Positions 2,192 to 39,502 of a stretch of DNA of 56,405 nt are shown one piece after another. Below the pieces are notes generated by a model. The model had not been told where the DNA came from and did not search any database. It saw nothing but the letters and a program-made list of their open reading frames with translations. The first letter of the stretch is position 1, and every line of letters starts with the position of its first letter. Both the position numbers and the translations under genes were made by a program. Source of the DNA: Thermoplasmata archaeon (GTDB taxonomy: Archaea; Thermoplasmatota; Thermoplasmata; Lutacidiplasmatales; UBA184); assembly GCA_021826685.1 (NCBI GenBank), contig JAKAYT010000006.1:1-56405 (forward strand), written 5' to 3'.

Positions 2192-2557
2192 ATGCAGCTC
2201 TCACCATCCAGCGTGGCCGTCTTGGTTTCGAACAAGAAGCGAGCGATACGATGGTACCGGGAGAAGCTGGGACTCAAAGTCTTCCACCATGCTGGACACC
2301 GGATCACCGTCGGGTCGCGTCGGACGGGGATGCAACTGCACTTGTGCGATCCCAAGGATTGGATGGAGCGCCCGAAGCTCGAGCCCGGGAATTCGGGGAT
2401 ACTCTTCCGGGTCGACGGGGACATCGAGCGGGCGTACCGCACGCTCAAGCGACGCGGCGTCCGCTTTTCGCAACCTCCTACGAAGGAAGAGTGGGGATGG
2501 AACTGCCGCTTCGTCGATCGCGACGGGAACGAATTCGCACTGATGCCGAACGACTAG
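2192..2557 (+). CDS. VOC/glyoxalase family protein
   Basis: AIRWYREKLGL N-terminal pattern and EEWGWNCRFVDRDGNEF C-terminal pattern. Confidence 0.85.
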   Translation: MQLSPSSVAVLVSNKKRAIRWYREKLGLKVFHHAGHRITVGSRRTGMQLHLCDPKDWMERPKLEPGNSGILFRVDGDIERAYRTLKRRGVRFSQPPTKEEWGWNCRFVDRDGNEFALMPND

Positions 2558-3357
2558 CGCCCGTAGCGCCGCCGGCGGGTTTGGAACGCGTGGATGGCCC
2601 GAAGGAACTCTAGGTGGGTGAGCCCCGGCCACATCACGTCGGAGAAGTACAGTTCGCTGTAGGCCGACTGCCAGAGAAGGAAGTTGGACACGCGCTCCTC
2701 GCCGCTCGTCCTCAGGATGAGGTCCGGGTCCGGCATGTCGGCCGTGTAGAGGTGCCGCCCCACCGCCTCGGCATCGATCTCCTCGGGGCGCAGCCGTCCG
2801 GCCCGCACGTCCTCGGCGAGGCTTCGGATCGCTTGGACGAGCTCGTCCCGGCCGCCGTACGCGATGGCGAGGTTGAAGAAATACTCCGAGTAGTCCTTCG
2901 TGGCCTCCTCGGCCCGTGCGATCGCCTGGCGGACGCGCTCCGGCAGGAGGTCGCGTCGGCCGAGCGCGCGGACCCGAATGTGATGTCGGTGGACCCGCGG
3001 GTCCTTGGCCACGTCGAGGAACCCCTGCTCGATGAGGTCCATTAACGTCTCGACCTCGTCCGGGGTCCGGTGGAGGTTCTCGGTGGACAGGCCGAAGACC
3101 GTCAGCACCCGGACGTTCACCTCCAAGCACCAGTCGAGAATGTCCTCGAGCTTGCGCTTGCCTTGGTTGTGCCCCTCCGGGATCAGAAGGTCGTGCGACT
3201 CGGCGAACCGGCGGTTCCCGTCCATGATGATGGCGAGGTGGCGCGGGACCGGCGCCGACCGGACGAGCGCCAGGAGCTTGCGCTCCTGAGCGTCTCGGAT
3301 CGCTCCCCCTACGACCTCGGAAAGGTACGAGGGGCGTCGGGCCGGTTCGTCCGTCAC
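2554..3357 (-). CDS. uppS: cis-polyprenyl diphosphate synthase
   Basis: HLAIIMDGNRR, LSTEN, IAYGGR and DLILRTSGEERVSNFLLWQ motifs; C-terminal RRYG. Confidence 0.96.
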   Translation of the reverse strand: MTDEPARRPSYLSEVVGGAIRDAQERKLLALVRSAPVPRHLAIIMDGNRRFAESHDLLIPEGHNQGKRKLEDILDWCLEVNVRVLTVFGLSTENLHRTPDEVETLMDLIEQGFLDVAKDPRVHRHHIRVRALGRRDLLPERVRQAIARAEEATKDYSEYFFNLAIAYGGRDELVQAIRSLAEDVRAGRLRPEEIDAEAVGRHLYTADMPDPDLILRTSGEERVSNFLLWQSAYSELYFSDVMWPGLTHLEFLRAIHAFQTRRRRYGR

Positions 3358-3411: not shown

Positions 3412-3514
3412 CGCCCTGGTCGGGAGTTTCGGGCCCGGGGGAGACCCCGAGCGCCTTCGAACCCGAGTCCCAGGCTCGACAGACCTAGATCCTAGACCAC
3501 TAGACTACCAGGGC
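3412..3514 (-). tRNA. tRNA-Asp(GUC) with 30-nt intron in the T-loop (intron 3426-3455, position 59/60)
   Basis: Acceptor GCCCTGG/CCAGGGC+G; anticodon arm TAGGT-CTGTCGA-GCCTG; T-stem TCGGG/CCCGA; removing the intron restores TTCGAAT and gives 73 nt; BHB central helix TTCG/CGAA with AAG and ACT bulges. Confidence 0.93.
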
Positions 3515-3629
3515 ACCGGACCCGAGGTAGAGCCACGCTCCTATGAACTTTCCCACGCCGGTTGGCGCCGCGATTCGAGTCGAGAGCGCGGTTTATGTAG
3601 CGGTGGGCGAGGTGACGAGGGTCGCAGAT

Positions 3630-5195: not shown

Positions 5196-5954
5196 GTGCT
5201 GAGCCCGGTCGACGCCCTGATCGGCGTCGCGGTCACGGTGGTGCTCGCGGTCGTAGCCGTACTCGGTCGCGCGTTGACGCCACCGGCCGCGGGGATCTCG
5301 GCCGTCTTCGGTTCGGTGATCGTGGTCCTGGCCGGCTTTCCGTATCTCGGCTTGCTCGCCCTCTTCGTGCTCGCGAGTTCCCTGGCCACCCACTACGGCT
5401 TCGAAGAGAAGGCCCGGCGCTCCATGCAGGAGGGCCAGCACGGTGAGCGGGGCATGTCGAACGTGCTCGCGCACATCTTCCTCCCCACGATCCTCGTTCT
5501 GGTCGCCACCCTCTTGCCCATCCAGCTTCCCTCGACGGCGTTGTCGTTCCTCTACGCCAGCGCGATCGCCTTCGGCGCATCCGACACCCTCGCGAGCGAG
5601 CTCGGGATCCTCTCGGGCCACGCCCGGAGCATCCTCACGGGCCGCCCCGTGCCCCCGGGGACCAACGGCGGGGTGTCGCCCCGAGGAGAGGCGTTCGCCC
5701 TCGTCGGGTCGGTGACCACCGCGATCGTGGGATGGGCCCTCTTTGTCGCCTTCTCCACCCCCACCGTCAGCGTGGGGTTGTTCGTCGGGGGAGTGGCTGC
5801 GGCAGGATTCGTCGGATGCCAGATCGACTCCGTGCTCGGGGAGGCGCTCGAGAACCGCCGGCTGCTCACGAAGGGCTCGACCAACTTCGCGGGAATGGGC
5901 TCCGCGATCCTGATCGGTATTGCGATCCTGATCCTCGCGGGAGCGATCCTCTGA
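5196..5954 (+). CDS. DUF92 (TMEM19-like) membrane protein
   Basis: Multiple TM helices; SDTLASELG, PPGTNGGVSPRGE and IDSVLG motifs. Confidence 0.9.
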   Translation: MLSPVDALIGVAVTVVLAVVAVLGRALTPPAAGISAVFGSVIVVLAGFPYLGLLALFVLASSLATHYGFEEKARRSMQEGQHGERGMSNVLAHIFLPTILVLVATLLPIQLPSTALSFLYASAIAFGASDTLASELGILSGHARSILTGRPVPPGTNGGVSPRGEAFALVGSVTTAIVGWALFVAFSTPTVSVGLFVGGVAAAGFVGCQIDSVLGEALENRRLLTKGSTNFAGMGSAILIGIAILILAGAIL

Positions 5955-6670
5955 TGTCGCGGAGGGTACGCGGCGGAAGCGTCGTCCTGCTTTCCGGGGG
6001 GATGGACTCCGCGACCTGCCTCGCGATCGCGTCGGCCCGCCATCCGCCGGTGCACGCGCTGAGCGTGCGATACGGTCAGAGGCACTCGCGCGAGGTCGCG
6101 AGCGCCCGAGCCCTCGCCCGATTCTTCCGTGCGGCGGAACACGTCGAGCTCTCCCTGCCGATCGGGCCGCTCTGGGACTCGGCGCTCACGCATCGCGACC
6201 GTCCTCTCCCGCGCGGTCGCTCGGCCCGGGCGACGATCCCATCCACGTACGTCCCGGCGCGGAACACGATCCTGCTCGCCCTCGCGCTCGGATACGCGGA
6301 GAGCCACGGGCTGGACCGGGTCTACCTGGGCGTCAACGCCGTCGATTACTCCGGATACCCAGATTGCCGGCCGGAGTTCCTCCGCGCCTTCGAGCGCCTC
6401 GCGCGTCTCGCCACCCGCCGCGGGGTGTCGGGAGGTCGGCCGATCCGGATCGTGGCCCCGCTCCTATGGCGCTCCAAGGCCGAGATCGTCCGAGCGGGGG
6501 ACCGACTCGGGGTCCCGTGGGAGCTCACGTGGAGTTGCTACGCCGGAGGCCCCCGGCCGTGTGGTCGGTGCGATGCCTGCCGGCTACGCGCTCTCGGCTT
6601 CGCGAAGGCCGGTCGCGCGGATCCGGCGCTCGCTACTTTGCCGCGGCGCCGGCGACGACGGGCGGGGTAG
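5954..6670 (+). CDS. queC: 7-cyano-7-deazaguanine synthase
   Basis: SGGMDS, YGQRH, TYVPARN, YPDCRPEF and SCY...CGRCDAC motifs; ATG overlaps DUF92 stop (TGATG). Confidence 0.96.
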   Translation: MSRRVRGGSVVLLSGGMDSATCLAIASARHPPVHALSVRYGQRHSREVASARALARFFRAAEHVELSLPIGPLWDSALTHRDRPLPRGRSARATIPSTYVPARNTILLALALGYAESHGLDRVYLGVNAVDYSGYPDCRPEFLRAFERLARLATRRGVSGGRPIRIVAPLLWRSKAEIVRAGDRLGVPWELTWSCYAGGPRPCGRCDACRLRALGFAKAGRADPALATLPRRRRRRAG

Positions 6671-39393: not shown

Positions 39394-39502
39394 GGGGCTG
39401 TGGGGTAGCTACGGGCCCGAGGCATCTCCCTCGGTCCGCTCTACTGGTCCATCCTTCGAGCTTTGGGAGCTCGGGACCCCGATTCAAATTCGGGCAGCCC
39501 CA
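39394..39502 (+). tRNA. tRNA-Pro(UGG) with ~34-nt intron in the D-loop (approx. 39411-39444)
   Basis: Acceptor GGGGCTG/CAGCCCC+A; anticodon arm CGAGC-TTTGGGA-GCTCG; T-arm CCCGA-TTCAAAT-TCGGG; removing the insert restores D-loop AGCTTGGTCCA and gives 75 nt. Confidence 0.9.

Follow-up and report, generated by a model that had tools for sequence, protein, structure and literature searches.

About a third of tRNA genes interrupted at position 59/60 in a family of Thermoplasmata encoding a loop-less, two-unit splicing endonuclease

In a Thermoplasmata archaeon of the order Lutacidiplasmatales, and in the family to which it belongs, about a third of the tRNA genes are interrupted at one site, between positions 59 and 60 of the T-loop. 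The gene at which this was noticed encodes tRNA-Asp(GUC) and lies in the window, by which we mean the whole 56,405-nt stretch of DNA that was analysed. A sequence-only reading of the window had proposed a bulge–helix–bulge (BHB) intron at 59/60 in this gene and considered it unexpected in such a genome; the intron itself is supported, but its novelty as a single gene has gone, and it is one of a set found throughout the family, unexceptional among them. The Asp insert is very probably an intron that is cut at two bulges by an α2 endonuclease, EndA, after which A59 and U60 are joined by RtcB. More tentatively, we suggest that this loop-less α2 EndA may support an intron expansion like that of the Thermoproteales, which would extend to 14 tRNA species, to an A57·G combination read as a fourth pair, and to the cutting of D-loop motifs that lack a helix.

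Euryarchaea with α2 or α4 enzymes are described as having introns in fewer than 10% of their tRNA genes, with one canonical intron in each (PMC4090602), and loop insertions in the endonuclease are considered to confer a wider range and to drive non-canonical introns (PMC5829648; PMC12397907); statements from the literature, here and below, are those of the portions of each source that were available. The pattern in the host genome contradicts the review statements on α2 archaea, in that 19 of the 38 tRNA genes found are interrupted, 16 of them at non-canonical sites, while the enzyme is loop-less. If our tentative suggestion is true, broad specificity would not need the CSL, ASL or L3 loops, and the model in which loops and introns co-evolve would need revision. 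That model also becomes directly testable with a single small enzyme and substrates that form a natural series, namely the G57-C, A57·G and A57-U motifs, introns from 10 nt to 39 nt, and the D-loop motifs.

The tRNA-Asp(GUC) gene

The gene occupies positions 3514-3412 of the window on the minus strand, is 103 nt long unspliced, and is the single tRNA-Asp(GUC) gene found in the genome assembly, which is 90% complete. Exon 1 (3456..3514, minus strand, 59 nt) comprises tRNA positions 1–59, that is, the 5′ strand of the acceptor stem, the D-arm, the anticodon arm, the 5′ strand of the T-stem and the T-loop as far as A59. The predicted intron (3426..3455, minus strand, 30 nt) lies between A59 and U60, and exon 2 (3412..3425, minus strand, 14 nt) supplies U60, the 3′ strands of the T-stem and acceptor stem, and the discriminator G73, with no encoded CCA. 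Removal of the insert in silico gives a standard cloverleaf with a 7-pair acceptor stem and a 7-nt T-loop, and the ARAGORN score rises from 102.1 for the unspliced gene, which is mis-folded, to 123.3. The Rfam model RF00005 gives the unspliced gene 21.6 bits, under the cut-off of 29. The identity of the gene, its strand and the site of its insert are thus confirmed as first proposed, as is the canonical T-loop expected from cutting after the second nucleotide of each bulge.

All five pairs of the T-stem (5/5) can form, and they provide the exon-side helix, h. The central helix, H, pairs UUCG (3461-3458) with CGAA (3431-3428) in four of four positions. On the 5′ side of the BHB (3455..3461, minus strand) the UUCG strand, tRNA positions 54–57, is followed by the bulge A58-A59-G, with the predicted 5′ cut after A59; on the 3′ side (3425..3431, minus strand) the CGAA strand is followed by the bulge A-C-U60, with the predicted 3′ cut before U60. 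The bulges are therefore AAG and ACU, which, with the 30-nt insert, the GGG/CCC side and the helix, agree with the earlier description. The intron hairpin, h′ (3432..3454, minus strand), consists of one G-C pair, a bulged C, an 8-pair stem and a 4-nt loop. Because the bulged C follows a single G-C pair, a strict hBHBh′ assignment rests on one contiguous h′ pair. In the lowest-energy fold (ViennaRNA) H is open, the region forming a 6x6 internal loop; the BHB fold is less stable by 3.4 kcal/mol, so that the endonuclease would have to capture a minor form. The BHB above a hairpin that the sequence-only reading described is therefore compatible with the pairing, although the reading omitted both the single h′ pair with its bulged C and the energetic penalty.

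A BRE/TATA-like box, the putative promoter, is found at 3542..3553 (minus strand) and ends 28 nt before the start of the mature tRNA; a TTCATA-like box is present at the same distance upstream in the Asp genes of relatives. The downstream neighbour is uppS, a cis-prenyltransferase gene (2554..3357, minus strand; TIGR00055 above cut-off), and the neighbourhood also contains a small hypothetical gene and a HAD phosphatase, an ordinary chromosomal context with no mobile element among the neighbours. The gene for 7-cyano-7-deazaguanine synthase, queC, lies 2 kb from the tRNA-Asp gene (5732-6670, plus strand; TIGR00364 above cut-off). The window contains a second interrupted tRNA gene, that for tRNA-Pro(UGG) (39394..39502, plus strand), with a D-loop insert of about 34–37 nt whose junction is ambiguous. 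ARAGORN in its intron mode miscalls this gene as Thr, and its 5′ part resembles the region of the Arg-GCG D-loop intron on contig C22.

Conservation of the Asp intron

A pattern for tRNA-Asp that tolerated inserts of 0–44 nt gave matches in 126 of the 151 genomes of the order; rows were counted by eye, and four were dropped as non-Asp genes, one of these being the sole row of its genome. Within the host family (145 genomes searched) the insert is present in 119/119 true matches, with a length of 27–34 nt, and no intron-less tRNA-Asp was found among the 145 genomes. This is the comparison across related metagenome-assembled genomes that had been proposed from the sequence, and it bears equally on the possibility, raised at the same time, of a pseudogene accompanied by a separate intron-less tRNA-Asp; such a gene was found neither in these genomes nor in the 90%-complete assembly of the host. 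A DNA search returned full-length Asp matches in 17 of the 18 genomes of the same genus, all with the insert. Four genera (11 genomes) were missed by the pattern because their acceptor stem differs, and the covariance model described below located the Asp insert in five genomes of these genera. In another family, which we call f3, the insert is present in both genes matched (2/2), with lengths of 10 and 14 nt; in the sister family, f2, the gene is without a T-loop insert (4/4).

The exons differ from those of the host gene by a median of 2 in 73 nt, and by 5 at most, across 42 other genomes of the family. The intron core has a median identity of 69%, and the z score of the hairpin is below −1.5 in 33 of 43 cases. 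H is paired in 40/40 aligned Asp sequences. In the same 40 sequences all nine hairpin pairs (9/9) show changes on both sides, and there are 51 compensatory cells as against 24.4 in shuffles (0/500 as high); the register of the hairpin varies, since a control slid by one column scores nearly as high as the register chosen. Where the exon has G57 the facing intron base is C, and where it has A57 the facing base is G or U; in three genera the Asp gene shows G57-C, in four A57·G. The gene is real, conserved and probably essential. Two further differences between families were seen. Within exon 1 (3514-3456) the D-stem has C12-G23 in the host family where f2 and f3 have G12-C23, the change being compensatory, and in f2 the tRNA-Asp gene of one genome (L024, G023:C35) contains a 37/38 intron which its three relatives are without, reflecting either a recent gain or differential loss.

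Interrupted tRNA genes across the host genome

The host genome has a size of 1.39 Mb and a GC content of 67%, the type genus of Candidatus Lutacidiplasmatales being described at about 69% GC (PMC9287336). A genome-wide structural scan for a T-arm, an acceptor stem and U8/A14 recovered 35 tRNA genes, of which 13 have a 59/60 insert, and gave 0 matches in the reversed genome; the addition of Leu-CAG, Pro-GGG and Pro-UGG brings the number found to 38. The inserts at 59/60, of 25–38 nt, each occur in a different tRNA species: Asp, Asn, Gln-CUG, Glu-CUC, His, Gly-UCC, Ala-GGC, Ser-GCU, Ser-GGA, Arg-UCU, Arg-UCG, Lys-UUU and Leu-UAG. Five genes have D-loop inserts (Lys-UUU, Leu-UAG, Arg-GCG, iMet and Pro-UGG), three have 37/38 introns (Tyr, Trp and Leu-UAA), and 25 of the 38 have an uninterrupted T-arm. 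For none of the interrupted species was a second, uninterrupted gene found in the 90%-complete assembly, from which 8 of the customary 46 tRNA species were not recovered.

Plain ARAGORN missed or mis-folded all 13 of the genes with T-loop inserts, and with intron search or lowered thresholds its output was mostly noise. The tRNA counts and genome quality ratings assigned to these archaea are therefore likely to be too low. Two of the genes, for Gln-CUG and Leu-UAG, form a tandem pair (G000:C41:108697-108985, plus strand) in which both have 59/60 inserts and Leu-UAG has in addition a D-loop insert of the strict-BHB kind; G031 and G033 also have the pair, and G039 has it twice.

Distribution in the class and phylum

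A covariance model of the T-arm plus intron was built from 19 sequences. On the host genome it recovered its 12 own training sites and one new site, with no false match. It gave 7–12 matches in one genome from each of four other genera and 11–16 in three more genomes of the family; in f2 there were 1–3, and in f3 8 in the first genome and 10 in the second. In wider surveys 40 candidates were scored per genome, and the counts are for this reason lower bounds. Matches occur in at least 93 of 150 genomes of the class, with at least 6–15 per genome in the host family (18/18 genomes) and at least 1–6 in 74 of the 131 others, and in at least 36 of 150 genomes of the phylum; among the 40 candidates scored per genome there were none in several families of the class (0/15, 0/7, 0/3, 0/2 and 0/2). 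On inspection, 12/12 class loci outside the host family and 26/27 phylum loci are tRNA genes with a 59/60 insert, the remaining phylum locus, L188, being a false positive. The rarity in Thermoplasmata that the sequence-only reading had assumed is thus not upheld, introns at 59/60 being frequent in the class.

A 37/38 or D-loop intron is often present as well in the loci inspected outside the host family. The automatic naming of tRNAs with several introns is unreliable there and was left out; the recurring 59/60 hosts outside the order are Arg-CCG, Arg-UCU, Lys-UUU and Trp. The 119 introns collected from the host family are confined to 14 tRNA species. In f3 there are 11 host species (two named by eye), 9 of them common to the host family (hypergeometric 8e-5 on 46 species). 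These distributions suggest a single ancient expansion, either in the order or below it, with f2 having undergone loss or split off earlier. The 59/60 introns of Lys-UUU, Arg-CCG, Arg-UCU and Trp would be old in the Thermoplasmatota. We infer that 14 or more tRNA species came to be interrupted at the site in the ancestor of the host family, or of its order; the introns would since have been inherited vertically, with selection for removability only.

Some loci outside the host family are unusual in themselves. tRNA-Lys(UUU) has three apparent introns, in the D-loop and at 37/38 and 59/60, in other families of the Thermoplasmatota (L145, L157, L158, L161 and L169). tRNA-Trp has a long 37/38 intron together with a 59/60 insert in seven loci (L170, L172, L174, L175, L178, L182 and L190), all from GC-rich families of another class of the phylum. 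The AT-rich f3 (G020, G022; L025, L027, L118-L137, L201-L215) has minimal 59/60 introns of 10–14 nt, with almost no h′ helix, which all end alike and often occur with a 37/38 intron. These are among the shortest archaeal tRNA introns, the range given in a review beginning at 11 nt (PMC4090602).

Variation in the motif

The motif was compared in 187 introns, from loci of 100 genomes in 19 families; Asp is oversampled in this set (48 rows), and most rows were collected with the covariance model. Position 57 is paired as G-C in 94, A·G in 55 and A-U in 36, with G·G and A·A once each and A·C not at all; collapsed by genus and acceptor, the numbers are 43, 36, 34, 1 and 1 for G-C, A·G, A-U, G·G and A·A. 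In the GC-rich host family 54 introns have A57, and the base opposite is G in 49 of them, U in four, A in one and never C, so that many motifs of this family consist of three standard pairs plus A·G; in the AT-rich f3 A57 faces U in 16/16. The absence of A·C, although a change from U to C would be easier, suggests that A·G acts as a pair in H, with the qualification that the covariance model may under-collect A·C.

Both bulges usually begin with A. The 59/60 introns have a median length of 32 nt (25–39) in the host family and of 13 nt (10–33) in f3. Both 4/4 standard H pairs and at least two contiguous h′ pairs are present in 79 of the 187, and for Asp, as for eight more of the 12 own introns tested, a fold other than the BHB is predicted to have the lowest energy. 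In the D-loop introns of Lys-UUU, Arg-GCG and iMet, H has four pairs and a contiguous exon-side helix is lacking. In two genomes (G000:C33:41082-41131 and L240) the central helix of the Asn intron is broken at position 56 by a C·C mismatch, and in a third genus the position pairs normally.

The splicing enzymes

EndA is encoded by one ORF of 354 amino acids, with two N and two C domains (two matches each to PF02778 and PF01974). The catalytic triad, Y285, H300 and K331, is intact when aligned with that of Archaeoglobus fulgidus (1R0V) and is found in the C-terminal unit only. To judge from this architecture, EndA would be of the two-unit α2 type and would act as a homodimer. No other EndA ORF, separate β subunit or three-unit chain was found in the 90%-complete assembly; an EndA homologue is present in 197 of 201 genomes of the class, with one full-length match per genome in relatives. 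The catalytic unit has no CSL, ASL or L3 loop insertion, being colinear with the enzymes of Methanocaldococcus jannaschii (1A79) and A. fulgidus, and the alignment of EndA to the CSL chimera 3P1Y contains a gap. Segment lengths are equal in families with 0 and with 13 intron matches (32 aligned proteins), and the host enzyme groups with ordinary Thermoplasmata EndA. Four residues, S213, R214, E220 and Q327, are particular to the host family, three of them at the site where other enzymes have the CSL or ASL insertion; f3 EndA is without the host-family residues and A. fulgidus shares S213. EndA and RtcB are both encoded in the genome (TIGR00324 above cut-off; RtcB match, E 1e-172). The endA gene lies between a pyrE-like gene and an HTH/ferritin-like gene, and is convergent with the latter (L001:641-2538); L033 has the same layout.

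Proposed route of removal

By analogy with established archaeal splicing, the Asp precursor would be transcribed from the upstream BRE/TATA-like box; EndA would bind the region of T-stem, H and hairpin, and would cut after A59 and before U60; and RtcB would then join A59 to U60. The T-loop suits EndA because the 5-pair T-stem gives the exon-side helix and the invariant U54-U55-C56-R57 gives half of H. The exon thus supplies h and half of H, so that all the intron has to contribute is a hairpin and a 3′ end that matches. Among contigs from eight RNA-library runs, in which only the genes of relatives are represented, the spliced joint was not seen. Seven of the eight runs gave low-depth contigs of relatives' genes; 7/8 contigs span the insert and one covers exon 1 only. 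The contigs may derive from precursor or from carried-over DNA. Mature tRNA is seldom present in libraries of this type, which makes the test a weak one, and unspliced contigs are not evidence against splicing, since contigs cannot show absence.

Biochemical precedent for the substrate range is mixed. The α2 enzyme of Ferroplasma cuts minimal BHB substrates outside tRNA, and homodimeric enzymes cut minimal BHB and BHL-like motifs (PMC8707768). In vitro, a relaxed D-loop motif was a poor substrate for the A. fulgidus α2 enzyme, and an assay on a 59/60 hBH mini-helix was read as indicating that loop-less enzymes are without broad specificity (PMC5829648). It is possible, if rather unlikely, that the introns are spliced but that a plain α2 enzyme is insufficient, the specificity of EndA having been widened by point changes, or the reaction needing the folded tRNA body or a helper factor; either would be required to cut the A57·G motifs and those D-loop motifs that lack an exon-side helix. 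The strong preference of A57 for G and never C in the host family, the helix-less D-loop introns of Lys-UUU, Arg-GCG and iMet, and the distinctive EndA residues, three of the four being at the loop insertion site, would all fit this explanation. However, EndA has no insertion relative to families with 0 matches, S213 is shared with A. fulgidus, the AT-rich f3 has 8–10 such introns, with A-U at 57, without those residues, and the cutting of BHL-like motifs is stated to be already within the reach of homodimeric enzymes (PMC8707768).

Retention of the introns

A separate suggestion, which we consider unlikely, is that the introns are retained for their disruption of the T-arm sequence at which the integrases of viruses and islands attach. 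A role of this kind has been proposed for archaeal introns generally, an example being SSV integration into tRNA-Asp(GUC) (PMC4090602), and the Asp insert does split the 3′ half of its gene, which the sequence-only reading had connected with attB. No viral contig matched the Asp 3′ half, interrupted or intron-less (the viruses of this group being thinly sampled), and the gene has no mobile element beside it, so that on these admittedly weak tests the attB idea gains nothing. Moreover, the one integrase-family gene of the genome is on another contig than the Asp gene, one similar integrase was found in 181 intron-bearing tRNA loci (1.5 kb flanks) and lies upstream of its tRNA, and the 25 genes with an intact T-arm would be left unprotected.

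It is improbable that the intron is a maturation checkpoint which delays or enables modification of the T-loop or elbow (e.g. at 54–58), A57·G serving that step. The intron lies two nucleotides from A57/A58, the choice of G opposite A57 is strong, and intron-dependent modification is known in other systems, to go by the portions of the literature available; against this, the 25 uninterrupted genes have the same T-loop, and the f2 Asp gene manages without an insert. That the insert is not removed at all, the gene being a pseudogene, an integration scar or a gene working with an extended T-arm, is very improbable indeed: no spliced form was seen in the RNA-library contigs and a second Asp gene could be missing from the 90%-complete assembly, but no intron-less Asp gene occurs in the family genomes searched, the exons are near-invariant and the constraint is BHB-specific, 13 tRNA species carry the same motif, each without an uninterrupted copy, and there is neither a duplicated tRNA 3′ end (one Asp 3′ end per genome) nor an adjacent integrase of the attL/attR kind expected of a scar.

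Relation to known systems

Position 59/60 is a listed archaeal intron site (PMC4090602). No publication on a family-wide expansion at this site was found, in a literature search that was thin on subscription journals. In the portions available, a preprint on Asgard archaea (bioRxiv 10.64898/2026.10.13.758758) does not mention Thermoplasmata, a paper on Lutacidiplasmatales has 0 occurrences of ‘intron’, and PMC4153887 and PMC9897764 contain nothing on these introns. A precedent within the class is the tRNA-Lys(UUU) gene of Candidatus Methanomassiliicoccus intestinalis, for which D-loop and 59/60 introns are listed in the supplement to tRNAscan-SE 2.0 (PMC8450103), a listing that also undercuts the supposed rarity. 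The two sites are those of the host Lys-UUU gene, and H is UUCG/CGAA, as in host Asp; this is one gene in an annotation file, Thermoplasmata being unmentioned in the available main text, as compared with 13 genes and a family-wide pattern here. The paradox of abundant introns with a loop-less enzyme is softened by this pair and by the report of homodimers that cut BHL-like motifs.

Candidatus Micrarchaeum acidiphilum (ARMAN-2) has 59/60 introns in pre-tRNA-Pro(GGG) (hBHBh′) and pre-tRNA-Cys(GCA) (hBH), at the same site and with the same BHB on the T-stem and T-loop, and the Cys intron was cut in vitro (PMC3239211). Its enzyme, however, is of the ε2 type with a specificity loop, and its introns are at many sites (PMC3239211), whereas the host enzyme is a loop-less α2 and the host introns are concentrated at two places, 59/60 and the D-loop. 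Korarchaeum cryptofilum is named as the sole α2 archaeon with non-canonical introns (PMC4033280; PMC3239211) and, like the host, combines such introns with a two-unit enzyme of homodimeric type; unlike that of the host, its enzyme has the crenarchaeal loop and groups with the (αβ)2 family. Methanopyrus kandleri has a D-loop intron in pre-tRNA-Glu(UUC) together with a loop-less (αβ)2 EndA (PMC5829648), which resembles the host in pairing a loop-less enzyme with relaxed D-loop introns (Lys-UUU, iMet and Arg-GCG), but few such genes are involved, the subunit type is different and cutting was inefficient in vitro (PMC5829648).

In the Thermoproteales (PMC4033280; PMC4090602) and in the Asgard archaea of the preprint, non-canonical introns have been gained lineage-wide at sites that form a BHB, the T-arm included, and, as in the host, they are missed by routine annotation. 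These archaea differ from the host in that their enzymes are (αβ)2, their introns lie at many sites and single genes have more of them. An origin of the present introns by direct target-site duplication was considered and rejected on inspection, as a duplicated T-loop would place two UUCG strands opposite each other, and these cannot pair. In the Thermoproteales, introns of different tRNA species are almost identical, whereas similarity in the GC-rich host family is weak: in the host genome 27 of 200 shuffles were as high, which leaves recent copying between its tRNA species unsupported. In other genomes 11, 0, 0, 0 and 0 of 200 shuffles were as high (a crude null), and the similarity between introns of different tRNA species is clearer in the AT-rich f3 (0/200) than in the host genome.
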